Positions 4,551 through 57,086 of a stretch of DNA of 64,000 bases are shown piece by piece. Numbering within the stretch: the stretch's first letter is position 1; each line of letters opens with the position of its first letter. Source of the stretch: Eledone cirrhosa. Its lineage: Eukaryota. The position numbers and the translations under genes are program-made. The stretch lies in assembly GCA_964016885.1 (NCBI GenBank), contig OZ024740.1:379130001-379194000 (forward strand), in the 5' to 3' direction. The notes below the pieces were generated by a model. It made no database searches. It was not told the DNA's origin and was given only the letters and a program-made list of their open reading frames with translations.

Positions 4551-4595
<45 letters not shown>

Positions 4596-4719
4596 TATAT
4601 ATACAGTATATTTGGCAATATACTGTATGCTTAATTAAAAACATTTTGAAGACCTTGCGCTATTGTTTTAAAGTAGTGACTATGTCACTTACTTCTTTTT
4701 TTCAACAAACAAAGGGAGA

Positions 4720-4767
4720 TAAGCTGACAGATCTCTGTTTCATACTGTTGGTAATCATCAGAGCTTA
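4720..4767 (-). ncRNA. Type I hammerhead ribozyme, canonical core
   Basis: Minus strand reads TAAGCT CTGATGA TTAC caaca GTAT GAAA CAGA ga TCTG TC AGCTTA: 6-bp stem I, CUGAUGA/GAAA core, stem III ACAGA/TCTGT, GUC cleavage triplet. Confidence 0.8.
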
Positions 4768-5063
4768 GCACTCACCTTTGTCTGTTGAAAATTATAAATG
4801 TTGAATTCTTATAGAATTCGAGTAATAATCAGGAACTGATTATACAGAGCGATTGCCGGTTCAACAAAAATTGAAAATTAGGATTGGTGTTCTGAAATAC
4901 CGATGTATACATGAATGTATATATAGTATATAATCTAAATTCCAAGAGCACCAATTCTAATATTCAATTTTTGCTGGACCGGCAATCGCTCTGTATAATC
5001 AGTTCCTAATTATTACTGGAATTCTATAAGAATTTATAATTTTCAACAGACAAAGGCGAGTGC

Positions 5064-5111
5064 TAAGCTCTGACGTTTACCAACAGTATGAACCAGAGAT
5101 CTGTCAGCTTA
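5064..5111 (+). ncRNA. Hammerhead copy with core substitutions (probably inactive)
   Basis: TAAGCT CTGACGT TTAC caaca GTAT GAAC CAGAGATCTG TC AGCTTA; A9>U and A15.1>C relative to the 4720-4767 copy. Confidence 0.65.
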
Positions 5112-5305
5112 TCTCCCTTTGTTTGTTGAAAAAAGAAGTAAGTGACATAGTCACTACTTTAAAACAATAGCGCAAGGTCTTCAAAATGCTTTTAATTAAG
5201 CATACAGTGTATTGCCAAATATACTATATATACATTCATGTATACATCGTTATTTCAGAGCACCAATTCTAATTTATATATATATATATATATATAACGG
5301 TTGCT

Positions 5306-5423
<118 letters not shown>

Positions 5424-6242: not shown

Positions 6243-6391
<149 letters not shown>

Positions 6392-6447
6392 GTGAGGGTT
6401 TTTTTTTTTTTTTCACAAAATGAAAAATAACCGAGGTGTCCTACACT

Positions 6448-6744
6448 ATATATATAAAGAAAAAGAGATGAAATCGAAAATGCAACTGGAGTCTTATTTT
6501 TTTTTTAAATATATATATTTATTTGGTTCCTTTACCGGTTTCGCATTTCTTCTGCTTTTCAAAAGGTGAGTTGAGATGGAGGGTCTGTGGTTTTTCTCAC
6601 ATCGTGAGAAAAACCACAGACCCTCCATCTCAACTCACCTTTTGAAAAGCAGAAGAAATGCGAAACCGGTAAAGGAACCAAATAAATATATATATTTAAA
6701 AAAAAAATAAGACTCCAGTTGCATTTTCGATTTCATCTCTTTTT

Positions 6745-6756
<12 letters not shown>
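6448..6756. mobile_element. Perfect palindromic fold-back element in (TA)n
   Basis: Arms mirror around 6602 (...TTTTTCTCAC atc GTGAGAAAAA...). A single-arm paralog lies at ~62617-62752. Confidence 0.85.
6638..6675 (+). ncRNA. Minimal hammerhead with compensatory U3-A8 core (mirror copy at 6529-6566, minus)
   Basis: CCTT TTGAAAA GCA gaagaaa TGC GAAA CCGG TA AAGG: stem I CCTT/AAGG, palindromic stem III ACCGGT, GUA triplet. Confidence 0.7.
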
Positions 6757-6812
<56 letters not shown>

Positions 6813-7476: not shown

Positions 7477-7589
7477 CGAAGGAATTGTGGTAAGGAACCA
7501 GATGGACCATAACGCACCAAAGTACTCAATACTTAGGGTAGTAGAGTGGGTTATACTTGTTCCTATATATATATATATATACATATATA

Positions 7590-8425
7590 TATGTAAATAT
7601 GAAAATAAACGTGCTGCGGGGTTGCTAATGGGTTACATATGAATAATGTTAGTCCTTCATCAGTGATCTTCCAACCATCATTGGTATTTCATCGCTTTAA
7701 AGACCATATACCTCCGGTTGGTGCGAGCAACGGCTAAAAAAAGTCGTTGGGACACCAATGATGGTTGGAAGATCACTGATGAAGGACTAACTTTATTCAT
7801 ATGTAACCCATTAGCAACCACGCAGCACGTTTATTCTCATATTTACACATATTTTTTCCCCGCTGTTACCCATCTATTTCGTTCTTACTGCTTCCTCTTT
7901 CTCTGTATCTTTACCCTCTCTAGCAGTCACTCTCTCTGTTAGCCTCTTCCTCACCCTTCACCCACTCATTCTCTGTTACTACCTCTCCTCCTCCTTCTTC
8001 CCGTTTGACCTGTGCGTAATTCTTTTCTTTCGCACCCTTGGTCTGGCAGGTCGCTTTTTTCTCTCTTTCGTCTACGATTTCACAGAACTTACGTTCACCG
8101 AAATCACAGACTAGATCCCTTCTTCCTCCCGTTAGACCTGTACGGAATTCCTTCCTTGCTCACATTCCAACCAGGTTTGATTGTCTTTATTCTCTCTCGT
8201 TCACGATTTCACCGAATTTAAATTCATAGAAATTTGGGACTTGACCCCTTCTTCCTCACTTTTCGTTGCTTCACCATTTTTGTTTGTTTACACTCGTGTC
8301 CCCTTTATTTACGTGTCCCAACGACTTTTTTTTAGCCGTTGCTCGCACCAACCGGAGGTATATGGTCTTTAAAGCGATGAAATACCAATGATGGTTGGAA
8401 GATCACTGATGAAGGACTAACTTTA

Positions 8426-8432
<7 letters not shown>
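7590..8432. mobile_element. Penelope-type inverted plus direct terminal-repeat element in (TA)n
   Basis: 7596-7685 is inverted to 7754-7845, and 7640-7755 is inverted to 8314-8430. The direct repeat ACCAATGATGGTTGGAAGATCACTGATGAAGGACTAAC occurs at 7754 and 8384 (630-nt unit) and contains a CTGATGAAG half core. Confidence 0.7.
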
Positions 8433-8460
<28 letters not shown>

Positions 8461-8463
<3 letters not shown>

Positions 8464-8865
8464 TAAAAAGGAAAAGAAAATGGTGACAAATTTTTCCCAG
8501 TGAAAAATAATTTAATTAGGAATAAGTATAAATTAGTAATAAGTATTAATTTGTATTCAGTTTTAGTTTTAAATTTTTACCGGTTGCGCATTTCTTATGC
8601 TTTTCAAAAATAATTTTGAGATAGAGTGTTCGTGATTTTTGCTCTGATCTGCAAAAATTAGAGCAAAAATCTCCAGATTAGAGCAAAAATCACGAGCACT
8701 CTATCTCAAAATTATTTTTGAAAAGCATAAGAAATGCGCAACCGGTAAAAATTTAAAACTAAAACTGAATACTAACTAATACTTATTACTAATTTATACT
8801 TATTCCTAATTAAACTATTTTTCACTGGGAAAAATTTGTCAGCATTTTCTTTTCCTTTTTACTAA
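8461..8865. mobile_element. Fold-back element, divergent relative of the 6448-6756 family
   Basis: Arms ~8461-8650 and ~8675-8865. Hammerhead-like TTT TTGAAAA GCAT aagaa ATGC GCAA CCGG TA AAA at 8715-8750 and its mirror. Confidence 0.8.
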
Positions 8866-10239
8866 TATATCACAACTCTGTGTCACACCTCTATTTTTTA
8901 ATGTGTCACACCTCTATTTTTTAAAAATATATATATATATATAAATATATATATATGTATATAAACATATATAAATATATATATATGCATATATAATATA
9001 TACGTATGTGTGTGCATCTGTGAGTTTGTATGCGCGTGTCTGTGTAAAAATAGCAACGTAGAAATGTTGAATGTTTTTTTTTTTAATAATACATGTATAT
9101 TTTATTTTTTAATTACATTTAATAGGATTTGTTATTGACAATAAAATTCCAGATCATTTTTGGAAAGAAGAAAAAGTTATTCTAAAAATATATTAGTCTA
9201 CATGTTTCGAAACTTTCAGTTTATAGAATTCGTATATCTTAAGATATTACAAACTTAGTTTTTTTTAGTCAAGAAAAAAAATTCTAATTTAATAATACCG
9301 ATGTCTAAAATTAAATCTGATTTTCAATTACTATATATTTTGAGAGAAATACTGTAAGCTATATTCCTGTTAGGATGTCGGAAGAAAAATTACCTCACTA
9401 TTTGTACTGGCCCACTGGGCTCTAAATTCAAATCCCACCGAGGTCAACTTTACCTTTTTTCCTTTCGAGGCCAATAAATAAAGTACCATATTAAGTTCGT
9501 TTCTTCGCTTTTTTATCAGTTTCTTTCGTTCCCTCCCACCTTTTCTTAAAGAAATCGGCTATATTCAGAAATTGAGAAGGATATGCTTCTCCAGGTTTAA
9601 ATGCTCAAGATACGCCGTGTGTCAATACAGAGCACCCATGACTCCATCAGGTGTTATAAACACTTTACTTTACAGTTATACAGTTATATACTGGTGCTTA
9701 AACTTAACATATAATATTAAATCAACCAATATTCTTTATATCTACAGAAAACTAATGAGTGCTTAGTATATACTCGATATTTCAGAAAAAGAAAACAACA
9801 ACAGAATAATACGAATTAAGGTAAAAATAATAAATTAATAACCAATAATATGAATATAAAATACATCGCCGTGTGATCAAGACGACTTCTTCGAAAGCAC
9901 AAGATTCGATCATGCTGCATGGCACGCCGGGGAAGTATCACCTTCTGTAGCATTGGTTTGAGCAATATCTTGCTAGAAGGATTTAGTAGAGAGATGCTGT
10001 GCGAAAGCCCGTTGTATATATGATATGTATATAAAACACAAAGACAGGATGGAGTAGACGTTTAAGACCAGGAAAAGAGAAGGCACGAAACATATAGTCA
10101 TTGAGGAGGTCAGAATTGTGTGACGAATGAAGAACGATAAAGATAAAGACGAAGGAAAATTATATGGTGCATGGGTTTCTTTCTATTGGTAAAATTGGCA
10201 ACAAGACCACCCCACAAATATAACAATATTTTTGTCAAC

Positions 10240-27075: not shown

Positions 27076-29249
27076 GAGCCGTTTACAATTATCAGTAGTA
27101 TTTGTCGTTAGGATTACTAACGGTTTTCCTTCCGAATGTGCAGAATTTAATGAGCTAGCCATAGCAAATACACAACTGAACTAGACCAATAATGTAAGAG
27201 GTTTTAACAATGGACAAAATACCCATTTTACCATTGATGAAGTATTAACCCCAAACTCATTTTTTATCCCTTAGTCGAGAGGGGAACAGTACCCATGATT
27301 CTATTTAGAAGCTTCTAAAACAGGTGGGAAGAATGTGGGTGGGTTGGGAGTAAGGTATTTTCAAATCGGGTAACTGACCCGAATGCCTGCGAGAGAGAGA
27401 GTAAACTCCGTTAAAAGCACCGAAGCGTTAGATGGTGGTATACTACGCATGAACTCCGCCGCAGGATTTGAACTCAAAATGAAGAGAGCCCCACCAAAAA
27501 TACCACAAGGTACCCTATTCAACTCTCCAACGACTCCCTCAGTCTAGCCTAGACTGTTACTTTACTTATCGACCCCAGAAGTATGATAGGTAAATTAAAA
27601 TGCAAGACGCGGGGAACCGAAATTTATAACGCAAGACCAACCTTACGATTTATGAGATGTTTGGATGATTTGAAATTTAAAACGATGGAATCTAAAAACA
27701 GAATCGAGTAAAATACTCTTAGAGGACAGAAGAAAATGGCCAGCATCCCCTTCAGAGAATCAAACTCCATATATTTTATATTCCAGACGTTTTTCTAAGC
27801 TATTATTATGTATAGCGATTCGGGTTTGGATTCCAACGCGTCAAACAACAAAACATTTCGCCTTTAAAGCTTTTGACAAATAACAATTTATCTAATTTTT
27901 TTATTAATTCTAGGGAGGAATAGGCATGGGCTTATTAGCTTCCATTTTCTCGCCTGAAACGACAACTAAATCAATAAGCATTAAAACAAGCATTTATTGT
28001 ATTGATACGAATATGTCCATATAGAAGTCAAGTGTGAGGATAACTTCCTTGAGTTGTGAAGGATCTGAAACTGGTCGTAGTTGCTGCAATTCATTTTCTC
28101 AGCCTTTAAAACAGAAATGATACCCTTACTTCTTAAAACACATCATATGAAATAAATATTTTTCTGAAATGTAGCATATGTAATAGATGAACAGATGGTC
28201 TAAGATTTCTTCGTCTCTCTCTCACACACACACTCGCTCTCTCTCTCTTCATCTCACACATACACTCGCTCTCTCTTTTCTCCTCCCTCTATCTATCTAT
28301 CTTTTTCCCTCACTAGGGTTTCGACTACTTTTCATAAACAAACCTGCGTTATTGCAGCTTGCATTAAGTTGACATACTGTCACACACACACACACACATA
28401 AACATGCACACAAAGGCGCATACATACATATACACAGATACATAAACACAGATACATACATACATACACATTCTTGCATACATGTATATTCTAATTTAAT
28501 TTATATTTTCTCTTTATTTGTCATTTATTTGTTTATTTTGACATTTTTCTTCCCTTTCACAGCATCAGTCTTGTCGCAATGTGTCATACTGTTTCGACCA
28601 GACAATTGCATTAACAGCATGTCTCTAAGGAATGTTCAGCTTATTATACGTTAATTTCATTAATAGTGACGCGCATGGTTGGACAATTGAATTGTCATCG
28701 TCGAGACTGACGGAGTGTCTACCGCAGTCACATTATAATACTTTATCTATTAATGTGAGAAGGATTTATTATAAAGCACTACCACCTGAGATTAGAATTA
28801 GGAAAATGTGGATATGTGCCAAGTTTATATTAAAAGGCGTTGTCGGAGACGATTGTTTAAATATATATTTTCTCAGTTATATGTATATATCTATACATAT
28901 ACGTACATATATATGTACACACACAGGTACACACACAAATATATATATATATATATATATTCATTAGTTAAGCAAAACAAGACCACACATTTCACAAGGA
29001 AGATATTATTAAAAGATTGTCAACATATTTTAGTTTGATGTAAGGAATGTAGAGAATAATAATAATAATATTAATAATAATTGTTTCTACGTTAGGCACA
29101 AGGCCAGCAAATACCCAGTGCATTACTGGTACTTTATTTTATCGACCCCGTAAGGATGAAAGGCAAAGTTAACCTTGGCGTGTCCGTTTACAATTGTTTC
29201 GCTACTCCATATAATATTTCTGGATCAGATGAGTATATATCATAATTGA

Positions 29250-31112
29250 TCCACCAACTCGGACATAACCAATAATGAGATTAACATCATACTTATGGCT
29301 AGGCAGACTATCATTGAATTCAACGGAGCACTCTGGACTAGAAAAGATAGAACAGACAACTTTGACATTACGATGGGCTCAAGTGACTCCGCGCAAATCA
29401 CCGATTTAGTTGGGATTTACCTATTACGTAACATCAGAGCCGAAATCCAACCCTTGCAAGGCGGAATATACAGGGACGAAGTCCTATTTGCAGTCCACAA
29501 TTGCACTAATCGGGGAATAGATTTGCTAAAGAAACAATTACATAGATTCTTTAAAAATAACTGTTTCTACTTTAGGCACAAGGCCAGCAATTATCCAGTG
29601 CATTACTGGTACTTTATTTTATCGACCCCGTAAGGATGAAAGGCAAAGTCAACCTCGGCGGGATTTGAACACAGATCGTAAAGGGACGTAACTATGCTGG
29701 AAAGCATGGCGTCCGACCCTCTACCGATACTGCCAATCCACCGTCTTTAAAAATAACGGTCTGTCTATCACCATCGAGCCGAACCATAAAGTAGTAAACT
29801 TCCTAGACGTCACCCTGGATCTCAACAATAACCTATATTACCCTTACCACAAACCAGGTGAAATACTCACATATATTAGCCCACACTCTAACCACCCACC
29901 GGCAGTCATCAGAGCAGTAATCAAATCTATCTCCTATAGGATCTCAATGCTATCAGCAAATGAGGAGATATTTATAAACCACGCACAATATTATAATAAG
30001 GCTCTCTCTGAATCTGGTTATGAACAATCAATTTATTACATACCTAAATGCCATAACACAGCAATTCACCATAATAAACTTAACACTAGAACTAGAAATA
30101 CCTTAGCATATAGCCAGATTCGCCGGAATTTTAGCAGTAACAGCACCTATACAGGGAACTTTAATGGTGGCAGCGGCCTGCTCCCCACTCCAAGTAGCAA
30201 ACTAAAAATCAACCCTAGAATAGGAATGAGAAATGGGATGACAAATAACAAATCCCCAGGTAATAATAACCCTGAGAAGGCCCCTACCAACTCCACTAGA
30301 ACCCCTAGAAGGAATAGACCTAGAAATATCACGTGGCTTAACCCCCCATTCTATCTAATCTAGCCACTAATATCCCCAAACGCTTCTTCTCTATCCTATC
30401 TAACCCCCCCCCCAACCATAGATATTACAAACTCTTTAATAAAAATAACATTAAAATATCATTCTCCACAACACCTAACCTAGCTAGCCACATCGCGTTC
30501 AGTAACCATCATAAGCTAAGACAGTATAACTCCCACACCGCGGTACCACCATCCCTATCAAATACACCACGCTACTACACCAATAATTACTCTAGTAGCA
30601 CACCTTCCCCATGTAATCCTTCTAGCACGGACCTACCGCTTAGGTTAAACAACCCTACTCTCACTAACCGCAGAAGCAACTGCAACTGCCGTTACCCCAA
30701 TGCATGCCCATTAAATGGACACTGCCTGACACCCAACATAGTCTATAGGTGCACGGTTAAGACTGCTTCGAATACCAGCTCTTATATCGGGTCTACCTCT
30801 AACCCTTTTAAGGTACGCTATAACGCGCACTCTTTTTCCTTCCGAGACTCTAGCAACAGATGTTCGACATCGCTAGCTAGGCTCATTAAAAACCTTAAAT
30901 TAAACAACGTTCAACACTCACTAAAATGGGATATCGTGGCTAGGGCCCAACCGTTCAATGGACGAAGAAAATCTTGTGATCTCTGTATTACGGAAGCATA
31001 TTACATAACTCTATCACGACCTCTACCGATTAACGATAGAACGGAGGTAACTATTAGCTGTCAACATCGAAGGGCTAATTCCTTCACCAATAGAATTTTT
31101 GACCCAACTTAG
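29250..31112 (+). pseudogene. Penelope-like RT C-terminal half plus GIY-YIG endonuclease (SINE insertion and one frameshift ~30355)
   Basis: MGSSDSAQITDLVGIY, IYRDE, NFLDVTLDL, YHKP, SNHPP, ITWLNPPF, then CNCRYPNACPLNGHCLTPNIVY...YIGSTSNPFKVRYNAH.FSF...KWDI...CDLCITE...INDRTE...CQH; stop TAG at 31110-31112. Confidence 0.9.
29556..29743 (-). mobile_element. tRNA-derived SINE with 14-bp TSD inserted in Penelope RT
   Basis: TSD TCTTTAAAAATAAC at 29548-29561 and 29744-29757. Confidence 0.9.
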
Positions 31113-31462
31113 TCATGTAGCCCCATTTTTACTTGTAGCTAATAAGTTAAATTGCTATGAACAACTCGATAATTATTAGTTACCTCCCCTACATTGTCTC
31201 TCAATTAAAAAAATTTAAAAATTAGCACTTAACTATAAACACCCACAATTTCTAATCTCTCGAGGAGTTACTTCCCCTGAAACCACCCTCTAATTAGTAA
31301 GGTAAATATGCCCTTTGGCAGCCATCTTGTTACCCATAGGCAGATCTCACACAATGCAGCCTCGACAGACGAATACTGCTTGATTATGGCTGACAACTGA
31401 TGCAACCAAGACACCATAGTAAAAACCAATATATGGAACATTATATTATGTAACATTCTCTC

Positions 31463-31636
31463 ATCGGTAGAGAGTCGGACGCCATGCTTTCCAGCATAGT
31501 TACGTCCCTTTACGATCTGAGTTCAAATCCCGCCGAGGTTGACTTTGCCTTTCATCCTTACGGGGTCGATAAAATAAAGTACCAGTAATGCACTGGGTAA
31601 TTGCTGGCCTTGTGCCTAAAGTAGAAACAATTATTT
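31463..31636 (+). mobile_element. tRNA-derived SINE
   Basis: B-box GAGTTCAAATCC and the same body as the other copies. Confidence 0.85.
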
Positions 31637-31655
31637 TAATTTATATTCCTTTGAA

Positions 31656-31775
31656 GTTCCGATGAGCCACTCTGTCTTTTAAATATGTTAATTATTTTCA
31701 ACTGAACCAGATCAATTATGATATATAGTCATCTGATCTAGAAATATTATATGGAGTAGCGAAACAATTGTAAAC
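31656..31775 (+). ncRNA. Penelope pLTR hammerhead (U4>C, long stem II loop)
   Basis: GTT CCGATGA GCCACTC...GAGTAGC GAAA CAATTG TA AAC. The 3' half is also present inverted at ~29183-29208. Confidence 0.65.
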
Positions 31776-32063
31776 GGACATTATTATTATTAATATTATT
31801 ATTATTATTCTCTACATTCCTTACATCAAACTAAAATATGTTGGCAATCTTTTAATAATGTCTTCCTTGTGAAATAGTGGTCTTGTTTTGCTTAAGTAAT
31901 GAATAACTTCTGCATGAACCCAGCCACCTAGCTGCTTTCTACTGCATATTGCACATTGAGCACATGCCTTTACGCTTTGGCTTCTAACTAATTCACCAAT
32001 CTCTCCCCTCCTATCTCCTCTCCTATCTCCATCTCTCTCTCTTTAAGATTGGTTACTCTTGAA

Positions 32064-45812: not shown

Positions 45813-48069
45813 TTTCTTTATTTGCCACAAGGGCGCACAAGAAAAGGGGACAATACAAAGACACATGCCGGGGATTTTACATATAGTCGTGTAAAAAAAA
45901 TATGAAACAAACAAACAATTATAACAATCGAAATCCCCATTAAGGGGGAGACGCCACAAATGGGTTGTTTAATACTCCGTCGATAGAACAACCCTCAACT
46001 CCAGGAGCGTGTTGTGCAAGTGCTCCCTTCTTCCTTTTGCTCTCTTCTTTAAGCTACAGGCTTATAAACAGAGAAGGCCCAATCACTCGGGCCATTTTCG
46101 CTTCATTCACCCACCTTTCAGTAAATTTACTGGGGTGCAGTGCCTCTCTCTCCACTCTGATTCTTCTTCTAAAGTGATACTTAAAGAAGGGAATCAATTG
46201 TTGTCCGGAGAGAAAGGCATCTGTCCTCAGTCCTCTCAATCTCGTCCACCATATAACCTCTTTCACCATAGCCACTGTACAGAAGAAAACCGCCTCTCTT
46301 TCGTTTTTGAAAGAGGCTGGCGGTTTGATCCTTACTATGGACTCGGTAGTCAACTGGATTTGTCCCATACGCGACAGCAGTTTTTCTGCATCGTTCCACA
46401 GGTCGCTTACGCCCGGGGGCAGTGTAAAATTGCGTGCAAGACGGTTTCAATGTCCTGCTCGCATCTTGAACACGTCCTCTTGGAAGGATCCCCGCCGGGG
46501 CGTCCGTGCCTGTAGATCTTATTTCGAACGGATAGAGCTCCTCGGTAGCACTGCCAGGCCAGGGACCTCTGGAAGTTGTCCATAGGTCCCGGGCGGAAAG
46601 TCCTACCGAACAGACTGGTGAGCTCGTCGTCTTCGACGCCTAGAGTACTAACCCTCTATAGAATGTGGAAGTGGAGTCTCCACTGATTGCTGTGCCCGCT
46701 TGACAGAGGACTGTGAGCGCCTGGGCGCATTCAATGTGCCAGGCGCCCATCTTCTTCGGTCTTCGCTTGACCCAGGACTGCAGCTCCGTCAGCGAGACAA
46801 GTTGTGGGAAGGCCTGTCTCACAAACGGTGCCCACACCGGTTGGTCGGTGAGAAAGGCCTGAAGATGCCGTAGCCTCAGCGTATGTTTGCGCATCATTAG
46901 CCACGGAATGCCAAGCCTTCAGTTGGAAGGGTGTTGACAGCAGACGGATCTCCTCACCAGTGGCGCCTGCTTCTTCCACAGGAACTGGAAGAGCATGCGT
47001 TCCATCTTGGTGAGGTATTCACGGGGACAAGGCACAACGGTCAAGCGGTAGTAGATGATGGACGCTATGAAATTGCTCGCCACCTCCGCTCGACCTTTCA
47101 AAGACAGTTTGCACTCTGCCCACTTCTGGGTGAGCGCAAATACCTTGGCCATGACCTCGTTCCAGTTTTTCTCCACCTGGAGGTTTGGACTGAACCAGAC
47201 CCCGAGCAATTTCACGGGTCCTTCCGGCCAGCGTCCGACGACGCTGTCGGACGTCATCGGTTTGCTTCTCCACGTTCCGAGTTGCAAACCGACAGACTTC
47301 TCCGGGTTCCGTTTTGCTCCTGTGAACCTTTCGTATTCCTGTAGTAGGTTGCCGATTACCTCGATTTCCGAGGTTTTCGACACCATTACAGTCACGTCGT
47401 CGACATAAGCCGACGCCGCTTTTCGCAGTCCCGGTTCTAAAGGGATGCCCTGCAAAAGCTCCAACTTCCGCAGTAGTGGCTCTAGAGTCAATACGTACAG
47501 AAGGGATCAATACGTACAGAAGGGAGGAGAGGGGGCATCCCTGTCGAATGGAACGCGTGATTGCGAACGGCTCTGATAGGTAGCCGTTCACTTTGCCTTC
47601 GAGCAGATGCTTGTGTGCATCGCCTTGATCCAGCCTCTGAAAACGGGACCGAAACCGGCCGCCTTGAGAACCGCTTCCAAGTATCGATTGTCGACCCTAT
47701 CGGATGCCTTAGACTGATCTAAATTGATCAGAGCCCCACCAAAGCCGGGTTTACACCCCACCCTCTCTATGATGTATCACATGAGGTGGAGGTTGTCGTG
47801 TATGGACCTGGTCGGGATTGCACATGTTTGCGCTTTCCCTACCAGGTTTTCGATGACAAGTGCCAGCCTTGTTGCTAGCACCTTGGTCAAAATCTTTAAC
47901 TCTGTGTTTAGCAGAGTTATGGGCCTGAAATTGTTTATTTCGTCCCCCTTGTTCTCGTCTTTCCTGATCAGCGTTACTACGCCCTCGCCTGCAGAACTGG
48001 GAATTGTCCCGTTCTGCTGCTAATTGCAGTAGACGGCTTCGAGGACGCCAGAGACAAGTCGGGCATGCC
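45813..48069 (-). mobile_element. Tx1/L1-clade LINE copy A (5'-truncated in RT)
   Basis: RPITLLN, RQGCPLS, AYVDD, VKLLGVWF, GLAFR (frameshifted GGLG), EVIWWTRL. The 3' end AATAAAGAAA is followed by TCTA-like repeats. Confidence 0.9.
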
Positions 48070-48070
48070 T

Positions 48071-48120
<50 letters not shown>
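48071..48120. repeat. (GATA)n tract between Tx1 copies A and B
   Basis: About 12 ATAG units. Confidence 0.95.
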
Positions 48121-48355
48121 TTCTTTATTAGCCACAGGGGCACACAAGAAGGGGACAATTACAAAGGGGGAAGTTTACATACAATAAAAACGTGTAAAAT
48201 GTTATCACAAATGGAATTTAAAAAGTTAGTCGATTTTCCCCAATAGAGGGAGACAGTTTATATGGGTAACACATACCCCCGAAAAAAAATGTGCAACCCT
48301 CATCTCCAGGAGTACGAAGAGTTTGTACTCCTTTCCTCTCCTCCTTTTCCTCAAC

Positions 48356-51300
48356 CTACAGGCTGATATAGAGAGAAGGCCCATTCACTCGGGCCATTCT
48401 CGCCACTTTCACCCACCTTTCATAAAACTTGCTGGGGTACAGCACCTCTCTCTCCATCCTGATTCTTCTTCCAAAGTGGTATTTGAAAAAAAGAATCAGT
48501 TGTTGGCCGGAGAGAAAGGTGTCTGACCTCAGCCCTTTCAACCTTGTCCACCATACAACCTCTTTCGCCATAGCTATCACACAAAGGAAAACCGCCTCTC
48601 CTTCGTTTTTGAAGGAGGGTGGCGGTTTGATCATGACAATGGAATCGGTGGTCAACTGGATTGGTCCCACCCGCGACAATAGTCGTTCTACATAGCCCCA
48701 CAGGTCAGTGACGCCCGGGCAGTGTATGAATGCGTGCGCGACGGTTTCTTCGTCTCGCACGCACCTCGGACAGATCTTTTTTACAGGGTCCCTGCCCGGG
48801 CGCCCATGTCTGTAGAGCTTGTCTCGAACTGGTAGAGCTGCTCGGTAGCACTGCCAGGCCAGGGACTTTTGGAAGTTGTCCATCGGTCCCGGGCGGAAGG
48901 TCCTACCGAACAGACTGGCCAGTTCATCTTCCTCTACGCCTAGAGTTTCACCGAGCGCGTCGTCGCACTTGCTGCGGACCAACCCTCTATAGAATGACGA
49001 AGTGGAGTCTCCACTGATCGCCGGGTCCGCCTACCAGAAGGCTGTGAGCGCCTGAGCACATTCGATGTGCCAGTCGCCCATTTTCCTCGGTCTTTGCTTG
49101 ACCCAGGACTGCAGCTCGGTCAGCGAGGGAAGGCTCGCCTCACGAACGGGGCCCACACCGGTTGTCCGGTGAGGAATACGTAGAGATCCCGCAGCCTGAG
49201 CGCGTGTTTGCGCATCGTCAACCACGGCATCCCCAGCCCTCCGTTAGAAGGGTGTTGGCAGCAGATGGATCTTCTCACAAAAGGAGCCCGCCTCTTCCAA
49301 AGGAATCGGAACAGCGCGCGCTCCATTTTGGCGAGCGTTTTGGCTGGACAAGGCACGATGGTCAAGCGGTAGTAGATGGCGGACGCTATAAAAGTGTTCG
49401 CCACCTCCGCTCGACCTTTCAAGGATAGTTTGCACTCGGCCCACTTCTGGGTGAGTGCAAACACCTTGGCCGTCACTTCGTTCCAGTTCTTCTCCACTTG
49501 GAGGTCCGGACCAAACCAGACCCCGAGCAGCTTTACCGGTCCTTCCGTCCAGCGTCCGACGATGCCATCGGAAGGCATCGGTTTGCCTCTCCACGATCCG
49601 AGTTGCAAACCGATGGACTTGTCCCGGTTCAGCTTCGCTCCTGTGAGACTTTCGTATTCCTTCAGTAAGGTGCCGACTTCCTCGATTTGCGAGGCGCTCG
49701 ACACCATTACTGTCACGTCGTCGGCGTAGGCCGACGCCGCTTTCCGCAGTCCCGGTTCCAGAGGGATACCCTGCAATAGCTCCAGCTTCCGCAGTAGTGG
49801 CTCGAGAGTCAGTACGTACAGAAGGGAGGAGAGAGGGCATCCCTGTCGAATGGATCGCATAATATGGAACGGCTCCGAGAGGTAGCCGTTCGCCTTGACC
49901 CTTGAGCAGATGTTGCTGTTGTGCATTGCAGCAATCCAGCCCCTGAACACGGGTCAGAAGCCTGCCGCCTCGAGCACCGCATCCAGGTAACGATGGTCAA
50001 CCCTATCGAAAGCCTTAGACTGATCCAAGTTGATCAGGGCCCCACCGAAGCCGGGTTTACACCCTACCCTCTCTATTATGTATCGCATGAGGTGGAGGTT
50101 GTTGTGTATGGACCTGGTCGGGATTGCGCATATCTGCGCTTCTCCCACCAGGTTCTCGACAACAAGCGCCAGCCTCTTTGCCAACACCTTGGCCAAAATC
50201 TGTAACTCTGTGTTTAGCAGAGTTATGGGCCGGAAGTTGCCTATGTCATCCCCCTTATTCTCGTCCTTCCTGATTAGTGTGACCACGCCCCCGGTTACGG
50301 AACTGGGAATTCTCCCGTTCTGTTGCCAGTTGCAGTAGACCGCTTCCAGGAGACCGAAGAATAAGTCCGGCATTGCTACGTAAAATTCGTAGGGTAGACC
50401 GTCGAGACCTGGAGATTTGCGTTTGCCGCATTGGCTCAGCGCGTCCCCTATCTCAGTGGCTGAAATCGGCTTTTCGCAGAACTTTGCCTCGCTGTCCGAG
50501 AGTCGCGGTAGGCCGTTGAGGTATGGACCGAAATCAATAGCCTCTCCCCCCCCCCCCCGAACAGCCGAGCAAAGTGTCGCTGAAAAGCCGCACACATCTG
50601 CTTCGGCTCACGTATCACGCGTCCGTTTTGGTCCTTCAAAGACCGAATCGTGGACTTGTTGCCACTTTTTGTGTCCGTCACACGGGCCCAGCTAACAGCT
50701 TTGGCTCCCTCGTTTCCCAGAGCACGTATTTTGCTTCTGACAACGCAGCCCTCGTGCTTTGCGTCGAAGAACTGGTCAAAGGCCGTTCTTGTTGCTAGCA
50801 CGCTGGCTACGTTGCCACTTCTAATTGCCTCTTCTACTTTATCTACCAGTTCCTTCTCGGTTCTATTTCTATCTAACGCTAATTATTTACTAAAAACTAT
50901 CGAGTCTAATCTAACTGCCCTCTTGAGAGAATACCACCATCTGTTGCTGAAAATGGCCCCTGTCAAGTGCTGTTTAACTAAAGTGCTAATCCGTCTACTG
51001 TAGGCTTTGCATGTCGGTAACGAGAAGTTCAGCTTCCAGTAGCCGGGTCCTTGTCTATGGGTTCTATCAAGGTTGGCCATGCAGGTCACTAGTTTGTGAT
51101 CTGAATAGGCAACCATGAACATTTGTGGACAGCTTAACATGTCCCTATCCTTATTTCTAACTAGAACCCTATCTAGGTACGATCTAGATGTTCCGCTACG
51201 ATTACTCCACGTCCACAGTGGCGCAGTCGGAAAATCTAGTCGATATCTATCGGCCAGGTCAAATCGGTCGATTAACTGTTTGAGGCTGTTACACCCCCCT

Positions 51301-51775
51301 TTATCGGGACATGCTCCCACATAGTCCCAACGTGTATCTAGGATTCCATTCCAGTCCCCCACTAAAAGCAAGGAGCGGGACGTTCCCAGAAAAGTCTCTA
51401 GACGTTTGAAGAAGTCTGGCCGCGGTGTCCCGGATGGGGCATATGCGGCCACCAGCCTGAAGGCTCCACCGTCACTACCGTCAACGTCTAGGACCACCAG
51501 TCGACCCTCCGGGTCCAGATGTACCGTCTGTGTTACGAAGCCCAGGTGTTTCCGCAGCAAAACGGCAACTCAGCCCCCACCCCCGGATTGACAGAGAGAT
51601 GCGTAGATCTCAAAGTCATCGAAGATGGGGGCCAGCTGTCGCTCGCCGTGGATCCTGGACTCGCAAATGGCTACCACATCCATACTGTGCGACCTGAGGT
51701 GTTTAAGAGTTTGCCCTGTTTCCAGGGCATCCCCAGGCCGCGTACGTTCACACATCCAACTCTTATATTGGCCAT
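48356..51775 (-). pseudogene. Tx1-like ORF2: APE endonuclease, reverse transcriptase, C-terminal zinc motif
   Basis: MANIRVGCVNVRGL, LLVGDWN, SYLDRV, YSDH, YWKLN, KSPGLDGLPYEFY, FRPITLLN, LDQSKAFDRV, RQGCPLS, AYADD, GGLG, CPRC...ETVAHAFIHC. Several stops and frameshifts. Confidence 0.92.
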
Positions 51776-51811
51776 GTTGGTGCTGAAAAGTTAAAGGAGG
51801 AAAAGAGATCA

Positions 51812-53728
51812 CTCACCCTTCGTCTCCTGGGGACCAGGCTGCACGATTTCCATGGGGGTGTTGGAGGGGTTGTCTGGATGGGTGGTGGTTTCCGGCGGGG
51901 TGGGGACGGAGATGTTTGGTGGGGTGGGGTCTGGTGGGATGGGGGTGTCTGGGGTGGGGAGACATTTGAGAAGGACGCGGTTGAGTGGTTTCACGCAGGA
52001 ATTCCCCACATCCTTCTCAAATGTTTCTTTTAGGGACCTATAAGTTTGTATAGGGACCCTAATCAGTTTTAGGTTCAGTTTTTTGCTTTTTTTAATAGAG
52101 TGGGCAAAAGTTTTCCCTTCGGTTTTCACCGAAGGGTCGTTCGTGATGGTCTCCATTAGTGTTTTGTTTTCAGTGTTTATGTAAGTGTAAGTGTAATTTT
52201 CTTGTGTTGTGTTTGTTTTTGTCTGTAGTTCTTGTGTGTGCTTTCGTTTTGTTGTAGGTATTTTGTTTTCAGGAGGTGGGGGTTTTGTTTGTGATGTTTT
52301 TGTTGTTTGTGTTGGTGGTTGTATGTTTGTGGTAGTGTTTGCTGTTTTTTTTGCTTTTGTGATGTCTTTTCTTTCTTTTCGAGCGATGGGGTTCTCCCCC
52401 GTCTTCACTGGGTGATGGCGAGATAGCCTCATCTGTTGTATCGTCTGTGTGATTGGGGGGGGGGGGAGTATGTCTTGGGGAGCTGTTGTGCCTGTATGTG
52501 ATTATGCAGTGGTTTTAGGTGGAGTGGGGTTGGGTGGGACTGTTTGTTGTGGTTATTTTTGTGTGTTGGTGTTGTTGATGTTGTGGTGGTGTTGGCGATT
52601 GTGTTGTTTTGATGGGTGTCGGCAGAAGAGCCTTTTTTTGGTTCATTAATTTAGGACAGAAAGCCCTCAGGTGACCCCTGCTAAAGCAATGGTAACATGA
52701 AGGCCGCCTACCCTCAACCGAAAAGTTTATGTAGGTGAGTCCGTCCAGGAGTACACGCTGTGGGATCATAGCTATTCGCTCTGGGCTCATTTGCACCAGA
52801 ACTTCAATGCTAGTCCCATTGAATACATCTCTGGGGGACTTGCCTACTGATAGTATTCTGTCCTCATCAAAATTGATGAAGCCGCACAGTATCCACCATA
52901 TGTTCACCTTTGGTGTGACACTCGTGATTCTGATCTTTTGTGTCCTTTTTCCCATGTATGTAGGGAAAAAGGTGTACAGGTTGGATACAATTAGCGACAC
53001 AGAGTAATTTTGGGCCGTCAATTGATCCTTCATGAGTACCGAAATACTCCCAAAAAGTTTGCTTCTTTGAATGAATGCAATATCATTCATTGAACTTTTG
53101 AAAACCAGATCAATTTCTTTCTGTGACAATTGGACTGGTTTTCGAGTAGAATTGGAAACTGTCCTAAAAACTATCGTTTTGAGAGCAGTTTCCTTGCGAA
53201 TTTCTACCGGAGAATTGATGCTGAAAGCACCATTTTTTTCGAAACTGACATATCTCCTAGCGTCCTTTAAAAGTTGTTCAGCATTTGTTATGTCGAGATA
53301 TATCAATTCTTCCTTTTTTTTAACTTTCTCTGCAAAGGAGATTTTTGGTTTCTTTGTGGAATCCGTATTGGTGGTGTTGTCATTATTGTTGTTATTGTTG
53401 TTGTTATTCTTGTTGTCACCGATGTTGGTATTATCCGTATTTTCCTTGGTGTTGTTGTTGTCTTTGATGCTGGTGTTATTGGTGTTGTCTTTATTTTTTC
53501 TTTGTTGTTGTTATCAATGTTGCTTTTATCATCATTATTGGTGTTGCTGTTATTTTTGTTGTCATTGAATTGTTTGGTGTCATTTGTGTTGTTTGAATAT
53601 GAATTCGTTTTTACATTTTCATTTCGTCTTTCCATCTCTATAGTATCTAGTGAAGAAGACGTTGTTGACTGCGAGCTTTGTAGTCTTACCGCCTCTCCAC
53701 CACCATTATCGTTGGACGCAGCGTTCAT
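51812..53728 (-). pseudogene. Tx1-like ORF1 (gag-like, zinc knuckle), frameshifted
   Basis: Asn/Thr-rich N-terminus, a globular region, CYHCFSRGHLRAFC knuckle and Thr/Pro/Lys-rich tail (ORFs 53303-53728, 52515-53306, 51809-52432). Confidence 0.8.
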
Positions 53729-53945
53729 AACGTAATCAAAATTTTACAATATTTTTTCCAAGATTCAATGGACAAAAACTTTCAAATGGATATTCCGCCC
53801 CTGTAGGGGCGAACATGAGTTGACCCACCACCTGAATGTTCAGACGGGGGGTCAAGTTACACAATGATATAAAATTTAACTAAAAACTCACGTTTTTTTT
53901 TTTACATAAATTAACGGAAACTTCTCCGCGAAGTTACACACGTCT

Positions 53946-53997
<52 letters not shown>
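53946..53997. repeat. (GATA)n tract between Tx1 copies B and C
   Basis: About 13 GATA units. Confidence 0.95.
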
Positions 53998-53998
<1 letters not shown>

Positions 53999-53999
53999 C

Positions 54000-56900
54000 T
54001 TTCTATTTGTTTGGGCATAAAAGATTGGGACAAATACAAGGGGGGGGTTACATACATTTAAAGGACGTGTAAAAAAAATAACAAATCAAATTCAACAATC
54101 GAAGTCATCAATAGGGAGGGGGCGTTGACGTGGGTCGCACACCACCCCGAAAACAATGTGCAAACCTCCTCCTCAGGAGCACAAAGAGCGGGTGCTCCAT
54201 TCCTCTCCTCCTTCTCCTCCTCTCTCACCTACAGGCTGATATAGAAAGAAGGCCCATTCACTCGGGCCATTCTCGCCGCTTTCACCCACCTTTCATAAAA
54301 CTTGCTGGGGTAGAGCACCTCTCTCTCCATTCTGATCCTTCTTCTAAAATGGTATTTGAAAAAAAGGACCAGTTGTTGGCCGGAGAGAAAGGTGTCTGAC
54401 TTCAGCCCTTTCAACCTCGCCACCATACAACCTCTTTCGCGATAGCTATCACACAGAGGAAAACCGCCTCTCATTCGTTTTTGAAGGGGGGGGGGGGGGT
54501 GATCGTTACAATGTACTCGGTGGTCAACCGGATTGGTCCCACCCGCGACAGTAGTCGTTCCACATAGCCCCACAGGTCAGCAACACCCGGGCAGTGTACG
54601 AATGCGTGCGAGACGGTTTCCTCGGGACAGATCTTTTTCACGGGGTCCCTAACCGGGCGCCCGTGTCTGTAGAGCTTGTTCCGCCGTAAGCGCCTGGGCA
54701 CATTCAATGTGCCAGTCGCCCACTTTTTTCGATCTTTCTTTGCTTGACCCAGGATTGCAGCTTAGTGAGTGAGACGAGTCTCGGAAAGGCTCGTCTCACA
54801 AAAGAGGCCCACACCGGTTGACCGGTGAGGAATACTTGAAGGTGCCGTAGCCTTAATGCGTGTCTACACATCGTCAGCCACGGCACCCCCAGCCCCCCGT
54901 TCGAAGGGTGTTGACAGCAGATGGATCTTGTAGAGGTTGTCGTGTATGGACTTGGACGGGATTGCGCATGTCTGCGCTTCTCCCACCAGGTTCCCGACGA
55001 CAAGCGCCAACGTCTTCGCTAACGCCTTTGCCAAAATCTTTAACTCTGTATTTAGCAGAGTTATGGGCCTAAAGTTATCTATGTCATCCCCCTTGTTCTC
55101 GTCCTTCCTCATTAGCGTGACTACGCCCTTGGTCACAGAACTGGGAATTCTCCCGTTCTGTTGCCAGTTGCAGTAGACCGCTTCCAGGAGACCGGAGAAC
55201 AAGTCCGGCAGGGCTACGTAAAATTCGTAGGGTAGACCGTCGAGACCTGGAGATTTGCGTTTGCCGCATTGGCTCGGCGCGTCCTCTATCTCAGCGGCTG
55301 AAATCGGCTTTTTGCAGGACTTTGCCTCCTCGTCCGAGAGCCACGGCAGACGGTCGAGTTATAGACCGAAATCCATGGACTCACCCAGCCCGCCGTCCCT
55401 CCCAAACAGTCGTGCAAAGCGCTGCTGAATGGCCGCGCACATCCTCTCAAGTTCAAGGATCACACGTCGATCCTGGTCCTTCAAAGCCCGAATCGTGGAC
55501 TTGTTTCCACTTTTTGCCTGTCACTCGGGCCCAGCTAGCAGCTTTGGCTCCCTCGTTACCCAGAGCACGTATTTTACTCCTAACAACGCAGCCCTCGTGC
55601 TTCGCGTCAAAGTACTGGTCTAGGGCGGTTCTCGACTCCAGCACGCCGGCCACGTTGCCCCTCCTAATCGCCTCTTCTACTCTATCTATCAATTCCCTTT
55701 CAGTTCTATTCCTATCAAATACTAATTCCTGACTAAAACCTATCGATTCTATTCTAATTGCTCTCTTGAGAGAGGCCCACCACCTGCTGTTGACAATTGC
55801 CCCCGTCAACTGCTGCTTAACTAAAGTGCTAATCCGCTTACTGTAAGCTTTGTTTGTCGCTAAGGACAAGTTTAGCTTCCAGTAACCGGGTCCTTGTCTA
55901 TGGGTTCTATCAAAGCTCTACGCCGGTCTCTAACTTGTGATCCGAATAGTCAACCATGAACATTCGTGGACAGCTTAATATGTCCCTATCCTTATTTTAA
56001 ACTAGGAACCTATCTAGGTACGACCTAGATGTTCCGCTGAGATTAGTCCACGTCCACAGTGGCACAGTCGGAAATCTAGTCGATATCTATCGGCCAGGTC
56101 AAATCGGCCGATTAACTGTTTGAGACTGTTACACTCCCCTTTATCAGGACATACTCCCACATGTTCTCAACGTGCATCTAGGATTCAATTCCAGTCCCCC
56201 ACTAAAAGCAAGCAGCGGGACGTTCCCAGAAAAGTCTCTAGACGTTTGAAGAAGTCTTGCCCCGGTGTCCCGAATGGGGCATATGCGGCCACCAGCCTGA
56301 AGGCTCCACCTTCACTACCGTCAACGTCTAGGACCACCAGTCGACCCTCCGGGTCCAGATGTATCGTCTGTATTACGAGGTCCAGGTGTTTCCGCAGCAA
56401 AACGGCAACCCCGCCCCCACCTCCCGGCTGACAGAGAGATGCGTAGATCTCAAAGTCGTCGAAGATGGGGGCCAGCTGTCGCTCGCTGTGGATCCTGGCT
56501 CGCAAAGGACTACTACATCCATACTGTGCAACCTGAGGTCGTTTAAGAATTTGCCCTGTTTCCAGGGCATCTCCAGGCCGCGTACATTCACACATCCAAT
56601 TCTTATATTGGCCATGTTGTTGCTGAAAAATTAAAAGAAGAAGAAAAGAAATCACTCACCTCTTCGTCACCTGGCGACCAGGCTGCACAATGTGCATGGG
56701 GGTGTTGGAGGGGTTGTTTGGTAGGGTGGTGGTTCCTGGCGGGGTGGGGACAGAGATGTTTGGTGGGGAGGGGGTGTCTGGGTGGGGGTAGGGAAACGTT
56801 TCAAGAGGACGCGGTTCGTTTGGAGTGTTGTCATTGTTTTGTTTTCGGGAGGGGGGATTTTTGTTTGTCATGTTTGTGTTGTTTGTGTTGGTGGTTGTGT

Positions 56901-57086
56901 GTTTGTTGCCTTTTTGTTCGTGTTATGTCTTTTTTTCTTGGGGGGGGGGGGGGGGGGGGTTCTCCCTCATCATCATTCAGTGATGACGAGGGGGCTTCGT
57001 CCGTTGTGGTGTCTGTTTGATTGGGGAGGGGTACGTTTTGGGGATCTGTTATGCTTGTGGGTGATTTTGGAGTTGTTTTAGGTGGG
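54000..57086 (-). mobile_element. Tx1/L1-clade LINE copy C (5'-truncated in ORF1, internally deleted RT)
   Basis: MANIRIGCVNVRGL at 56615, APE and RT N-terminal motifs. A junction at ~54929 joins IHDNL to RSICCQHPSNGGLG. Followed by GATAGATAGATAG at 57087-57100. Confidence 0.9.

Follow-up and report, generated by a model that had tools for sequence, protein, structure and literature searches.

The window analysed here, a stretch of 64,000 nucleotides of Eledone cirrhosa DNA, contains at positions 4591–5273 two inverted copies of a short monomer with a hammerhead ribozyme motif, which raises the question of what machinery placed them there and from what kind of RNA they were copied. A preliminary description of the locus regarded the arms as different circular permutations of one monomer and explained them by reverse transcription from a circular or multimeric RNA, as in retrozymes. 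The answer at which we arrive, with a probability of about 0.8, is that the structure is an insertion of a high-copy, non-coding hammerhead repeat, likely mobilised by the protein of a Penelope-like element (PLE) at an (AT)n target.

The insertion is flanked by (AT)n microsatellites at 4565–4590 and 5275–5422, the left and right halves of the likely target. The left arm (4591–4931, minus strand, ~1.07 units) has its 3' end, in the RNA sense, at a fixed site that we call A (...TTCAT, with (AT)n next and without a tail), and is 5'-truncated at 4931. The right arm (4945–5273, plus strand, ~1.05 units) is 5'-truncated at 4945 and has its 3' end at a second fixed site, B (...CCAATTCTAAT before (AT)n); the 34-nt tail between sites A and B (5240–5273, plus strand) is terminal on this arm only. 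A 13-nt junction (4932–4944), matching neither arm, separates the two 5' ends. The RNA sense is fixed by the hammerhead, which is encoded on the minus strand in the left arm and on the plus strand in the right one. The repeats first described at the arm boundaries are as reported, with AGAGCACCAATTCTAAT bounding the right arm at 4945 and 5257 (period 312) and ATGAATRTATATAYAGTATAT making the left arm terminally redundant at 4591 and 4911 (period 320), and a self-match of the region bears out that both arms are inverted and exceed unit length, the family unit being 319 nt. The identity of the two arms is 89.5% in the whole-region self-match and 95% over shared columns, and the right arm lacks 7 nt near 5033. 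An assembly artefact could be imagined at a locus that is surrounded by long (AT)n runs and for which no read-derived contigs span the entire stretch, but such an origin, like that of a chance palindrome, can for practical purposes be dismissed: the arms differ by substitutions and by the 7-nt indel, as the preliminary description had argued, and the same architecture, with differing junctions, recurs at 106 of 168 sampled loci. Chance is further contradicted by the terminal 21-mer of the unit, which has 3,203 exact matches in the genome, compared with none for the reversed control.

The unit belongs to a family of thousands of copies in the 3.0-Gb genome. Four DNA similarity searches yielded 2,253, 1,622, 2,720 and 2,845 first-look candidates, of which the best 40 were scored in each case; the pooled set of 168 loci and 299 arms comprises 30, 23, 29 and 27 loci from these searches and 59 loci taken by position on contig 1, after removal of loci fetched twice, two segmental duplicates and one member of a pair that is duplicated within L057. 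Two subfamilies, 87.5% alike, have units of 319 and 314 nt, and a third is distinguished by a U3-A8 hammerhead core. Among the matches to the terminal 21-mer, 775 go directly into ATAT and 1,387 read on into a next unit. Arm lengths range from below one unit up to 17 units, the majority of copies having arms of 0.3–2 units; head-to-tail arrays comprise ~17 units of the U3-A8 subfamily (L262, 1957–7457) and ~7.3 units (L171, 2971–5299). A fixed LTR-body-LTR layout is absent from the mapped loci, the longest stop-free frame in the doubled unit is 41 codons in the sense and 57 in the antisense direction, and the unit is highly self-paired (circular fold z = -6.7 and -5.3). Judged by its sequence, the family would be a new animal non-LTR retrozyme and a non-autonomous PLE, since it agrees with retrozymes in every feature tested, and it may already be catalogued in repeat libraries (Repbase/Dfam). 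A few copies depart from the common pattern: at L264 (G000:C1:56078500-56078846) the terminal 21-mer occurs three times at 163-nt spacing, suggesting a shortened tandem unit, an arm in L023 is joined near 2073 to a second hammerhead-like sequence, and arms in L004 (near 2053) and L017 (near 1863) are joined to a sequence common to the two.

The 3' ends of the arms fall mainly at two sites. Site A (...TTCAT) is the end point of 126 of the 299 arms and site B (...CTAAT) that of 121, which leaves 52 with other ends, and in the positional sample 95 of 112 arms end at A or B. The distance between the two sites is 34 nt, and shrinks to 26 nt when all AT microhomology is assigned to the element; the exact base of site A is ambiguous because AT homology to the target extends there over up to ~8 nt. 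Six alternating A/T bases directly follow 74 of the 126 A ends and 92 of the 121 B ends. The 5' ends, by comparison, are scattered, and they do not accumulate at the ribozyme cut (14 of 299 observed and 10.3 expected, p = 0.15), so that run-off at this point was rejected as their source. Back-to-back pairs number 106, of which 63 combine A with B, four are A+A, two are B+B and 37 have an unclassified end; no tail-to-tail pair occurs among them. Hence A is paired with B in 63 of the 69 classifiable inverted insertions. The proportion is 16 of 19 in the sets whose query was not end-anchored (one duplicated pair being counted twice) and 31 of 31 in the positional sample, which was anchored on a 21-mer containing B and includes one duplicate; the query for the first 30 loci likewise ended at site B. 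A further 22 loci outside the pool contributed five A+B pairs, one B+B pair and four pairs with an unclassified end. The junctions of the 106 pairs show an overlap of 1–8 nt in 48 cases, are blunt in six, contain 1–15 extra nucleotides in 33 and are of other kinds in 19.

These counts change the meaning of the two permutations on which the preliminary description relied. Since the left arm terminates at A and its partner at B, the permutations amount to two fixed starts combined with chance truncation; the 3' ends lie at the two sites in 247 of 299 arms and only the inner 5' ends vary, so random permutation of the ends is rejected and the difference in permutation does not by itself indicate a circle. 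What survives of the retrozyme-type explanation is that arms of more than unit length need a circular or multimeric template. The fixed ends that had been named as an argument against this explanation are found on the 3' side, the 5' ends being scattered. Taken together, the difference in permutation and the inversion are the known tail and inverted-arm structure of PLEs.

PLE copies include partial tandems, an inverted 5'-truncated copy and a 30–40-bp tail that is often single-ended, at (TA)n targets (Craig et al., PMC8557442), and a tail of 31 bp has been described together with a proposal that head-to-head structures arise by self-priming (Arkhipova et al., PMC3846280). In vitro, a PLE protein, predicted to be a dimer, cuts and extends both strands of AT-rich DNA, and two internal start sites of reverse transcription bound a tail of 30–40 bp (Frangieh et al., PMC11167929). 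In the window, 6380–6757 and 8455–8925 are solo inverted pairs of pLTRs with the same layout as the retrozyme insertion; as their sequences correspond to terminal repeats found on coding PLEs of Neptune type in the genome, the insertion machinery is present. The one-A-one-B rule suggests that a different start site is used on each target strand. Beside the observed ends, their pairing, the arm lengths and the (AT)n flanks, to which the sharing of alleles within insertions and the covariation of the ribozyme are added below, the explanation likely involves a PLE enzyme, priming from both strands and an RNA template. The PLE protein would cut both strands of the (AT)n target, and each cut end would serve to copy one arm, reverse transcription starting from one end at site A of the RNA and from the other at site B, 26–34 nt further 3'. 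Each cDNA would be of variable length, in many cases continuing across the ribozyme site and beyond one unit, before the two were joined back to back via their 5' ends.

An inverted arm could also form if the first cDNA folded back and primed itself, or through an inversion at the DNA level, without a second priming event on RNA. Self-priming is the very mechanism proposed for head-to-head PLE structures (PMC3846280), alleles are common to both arms, and by length one arm could be a copy of the other in 38 of the 63 A+B pairs. In the remaining 25, including 4591–5273, neither arm fits within the other, which refutes fold-back for these insertions, and the 5' ends lie within 15 nt of each other in only six of the 63. 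We therefore consider this route quite improbable as a general explanation and retain priming from both strands.

A related process is known from LINE-1. In twin priming, both target strands prime and an inverted 5' segment results; the second site varies and the two segments derive from different parts of the RNA. In the Eledone retrozyme, unlike in this process, both start sites are fixed and the sequences of the arms overlap.

The hammerhead of the left arm (4720–4767, minus strand) is of type I with an intact core, and its predicted cut falls after GUC, between 4726 and 4725. Read from 4767 to 4720, it has stem I (UAAGCU/AGCUUA), CUGAUGA, GAAA and the GUC site, and a near-palindromic loop on stem III. 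The name of textbook hammerhead given to it earlier is apt as far as the GUC site, the 6-bp stem I and the core are concerned, but slightly too generous, because pair 10.1-11.1 is U-U and stem II has 3 bp; the same U-U is frequent in the family (76 of 147 units). The hammerhead region folds with z = -6.2 and lies within a long stem (4696–4791, minus strand) that shows compensatory changes between subfamilies. A search of Rfam gave no hammerhead match, only hairpin-type matches, mostly to miRNA models, below their cut-offs. The core is intact in 108 of 147 units, and the core pattern has 1,200 exact matches in the genome and none in the control. In an alignment of 45 sequences, chosen by hand from the two subfamilies and from variants, 96.1% of cells are paired, as opposed to 39–49% in slid controls; two-sided changes occur in 9 of 29 pairs and the covariation score exceeds that of all 500 shuffles, although the count of pairs with two-sided changes does not stand above shuffling (319 of 500) and the changes between subfamilies represent few independent events. 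By locus, the core pair is C3-G8 at 84, U3-A8 at 37 and mixed at five, a swap known from Schistosoma PLE hammerheads (PMC4209133).

The hammerhead of the right arm (5064–5111, plus strand) has the lesions originally reported, A9>U in CUGACGU and A15.1>C in GAAC, and was likely inactivated after insertion. In the first subfamily, core positions differ from the majority at 2.8%, compared with 3.5% for other monomorphic positions, so that the lesions look like neutral decay, and the idea of an intact and a mutated copy forming a functional arrangement was rejected. The ribozyme is conserved in source copies, as the pairing in the alignment shows, and individual genomic copies appear to decay neutrally. 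Stem III is palindromic or near-palindromic in the common variants, which suggests cleavage that depends on dimers. Of nine Xenopus retrozyme dimers, eight failed to cleave in vitro (Li et al., bioRxiv 10.64898/2026.07.22.740005), and ribozyme mutants left insertion by a PLE in vitro unaffected, cleavage thus not being required (PMC11167929).

As to the template, a cleaved linear monomer cannot have served, because 141 of the 299 arms are longer than one unit and 18 are longer than two, and the ribozyme cut site is passed two or more times in 52. This leaves a circle or a linear multimer, and the distribution of alleles bears on the choice. At 29 polymorphic sites, agreement is 92.4% between the arms of an insertion (1,210 comparisons) and 92.0% between successive units (1,305 comparisons), compared with 62.1% between loci, and none of 1,000 permutations reaches the level within insertions; in the positional sample the corresponding values are 96.3%, 93.9% and 83.1%. 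Rare alleles are shared in 17–18% of cases within insertions and in 1.5% between loci, although for the comparison of arms 21 of the 49 shared pairs come from one locus, and the insertion at 4591–5273 shares none. The second subfamily shows weak sharing (80% as compared with 74%, on four sites), with rare alleles shared within arms in 0 of 52 cases. Among 324 sites from 31 loci at which three copies overlap, the deviating one is the upstream unit at 104, the one-third expected if the units were identical, a result that fits a circle and equally a young, homogeneous array. The sharing within insertions favours a circle without proving it, because genomic arrays exist; gene conversion could likewise produce it, as could the activity of a single source at any one time.

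The main competitor, which we regard as possible though somewhat less likely, keeps the PLE-type mechanism and replaces the circle by a linear multimer that comes from transcription of a young, homogeneous tandem array and stays uncleaved, the hammerhead only trimming ends. Arrays of 7.3 and 17 units exist and are able to supply long arms, an anole PLE used mainly unprocessed RNA in vitro (PMC11167929), and the three-copy comparison cannot tell a circle from a fresh array. Long arrays are rare, however, with only six of 299 arms crossing the cut site at least three times, and their units are now 82–97% alike. Moreover, 63 haplotypes are found among 75 loci (a number partly inflated by decay), yet insertions are internally uniform, and this uniformity is easiest to obtain by passage through a single unit and re-multimerisation in each generation. 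Weighing these patterns, we lean slightly towards a circular monomer, which would arise by hammerhead cleavage and ligation, over a fresh linear multimer. The complete scheme, in which a circle of ~319 nt would be read by a PLE RT dimer from both cut ends of the (AT)n target, starting at A and B and rolling past unit length, is put forward tentatively, at a little below even odds.

If the unit were just the terminal repeat (pLTR) of a coding PLE, its copies would be truncated tail-end insertions, and the preliminary description had named such a pLTR as an argument against its own reading. The ends and the inversion are indeed as in pLTRs, solo inverted pLTR pairs adjoin the locus, opposite-strand pairs of hammerheads 100–700 bp apart have previously been linked to truncated PLEs (PMC4209133), and sampling of the top 40 could overlook a low-copy parent. 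A homologous pLTR, which would mark an autonomous partner, was sought in 104 PLE loci without success; these loci, a small fraction of the more than 10,000 GIY-YIG candidates, consist of 30 of 150 scored GIY-YIG loci, 20 regions, 25 loci of the PLE family of the window and 29 loci of the L293 family. Successive units are joined head to tail, in as many as 17 repetitions, so that the unit is self-closing; its sense frame of at most 41 codons includes no RT or GIY-YIG frame, nor does an ORF with both adjoin it in the copies sampled. When 340 upstream stretches were compared, PLE coding sequence in the same direction directly abutted the unit only in L293, joined inside the ORF, and the 29 other copies of that PLE family have an unrelated pLTR. 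The 26 atypical continuations among 95 examined for the 21-mer are all AT-rich ends or read-through into a subfamily. We thus judge the pLTR explanation unlikely and treat the unit as a non-coding passenger. In L293 (180–1282), an RT fragment of a Neptune-type PLE directly meets the retrozyme's last 70 nt; the join shows 2 nt of microhomology, and AT runs border the fused segment on both outer sides. This chimera may record a template switch to Neptune-type RNA, and is the single hint at a partner. Elsewhere, at L062, a copy of the second subfamily sits within the AT tail of a PLE.

Animal retrozymes were defined, their circles demonstrated and PLEs named as candidate helpers by Cervera and de la Pena (2020, PMC7229834), and an origin of retrozymes from PLEs has been argued from homology and co-occurrence (Li, Clavereau and Pollet 2026, bioRxiv 10.64898/2026.07.22.740005). 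The Eledone family resembles the metazoan non-LTR retrozymes in having a non-coding unit within 150–450 nt, a type I hammerhead, low GC, high self-pairing, monomer-to-multimer copies and coexistence with PLEs. It differs in that its copies are mostly arms of 0.3–2 units rather than arrays, and in lacking a homologous pLTR in the PLE loci sampled; the published link to PLEs is one of co-occurrence and pLTR homology, whereas here it is the footprint of insertion. In the consulted text of PMC7229834 the word 'inverted' is absent, and in that of Li et al. (2026) 'tail' is absent and 'inverted' appears once, in a reference; our partial search of the literature found no report of a PLE tail and inversion footprint, or of a one-A-one-B count, on a retrozyme. 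With endonuclease-positive PLEs (Penelope/Poseidon, Neptune, Naiad; PMC8557442, PMC3846280, PMC11167929) the family has in common partial tandems, 5' truncation, an inverted arm, a one-ended tail of 30–40 bp, an AT-rich or (TA)n target and a hammerhead upstream of the start sites; unlike them, its unit has no RT or GIY-YIG frame and is self-closing, and its hammerhead, with a 6-bp stem I and a 3–4-bp stem II, is nearer to the canonical than to the minimal PLE form. Non-autonomous PLEs of Chlamys, such as MRC1 (PMC8557442), are likewise non-coding passengers with multicopy head-to-tail insertions; as described there, they have no canonical hammerhead and generally have 3' sequence in common with an autonomous family, which was not found for the Eledone family in the loci sampled.

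The element is thus ordinary in kind, and the copy at 4591–5273 is a decayed passenger. Its interest lies in two questions that, as far as the literature consulted goes, are open, namely what enzyme mobilises animal retrozymes, and whether circular templates are among those that PLEs copy, the circle model being a proposal. In the Eledone family, a non-coding, self-closing unit bears the tail and inversion footprint of PLEs, and as a short substrate of natural origin it lends itself to the in vitro PLE assay that already exists. If a circle is indeed read by a PLE RT dimer, the thousands of genomic copies would hold the first direct footprint of PLE enzymes on a retrozyme, and of a circle serving as PLE template.

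Other repeats in the window belong to several families. The Neptune-type pLTR pair at 6380–6757 is 88–99% identical to L121, L129, L130 and L136 and has a ~60-nt tail on one arm only; in its PLE family the hammerhead is a variant whose core is U3-A8 and whose stem III is palindromic. The solo inverted terminal-repeat pair at 8455–8925 represents another Neptune-type family (matching L087, L089 and L127). At 7587–8435 there is a further inverted-repeat family with its two ends ~46 nt apart, in which the motif CTGATGAAGGACTA resembles the start of the hammerhead in the L303–L331 PLE family, with GAAA not following. A broken PLE at 29192–31790 comprises an RT remnant with a weak GIY-YIG match, an inverted terminal repeat and SINE-like inserts, and is of very high copy, with 177,279 first-look candidates. 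Finally, degraded LINE-like copies with endonuclease- and RT-like frames, assigned to family by eye, occupy the minus strand at 46000–57000.
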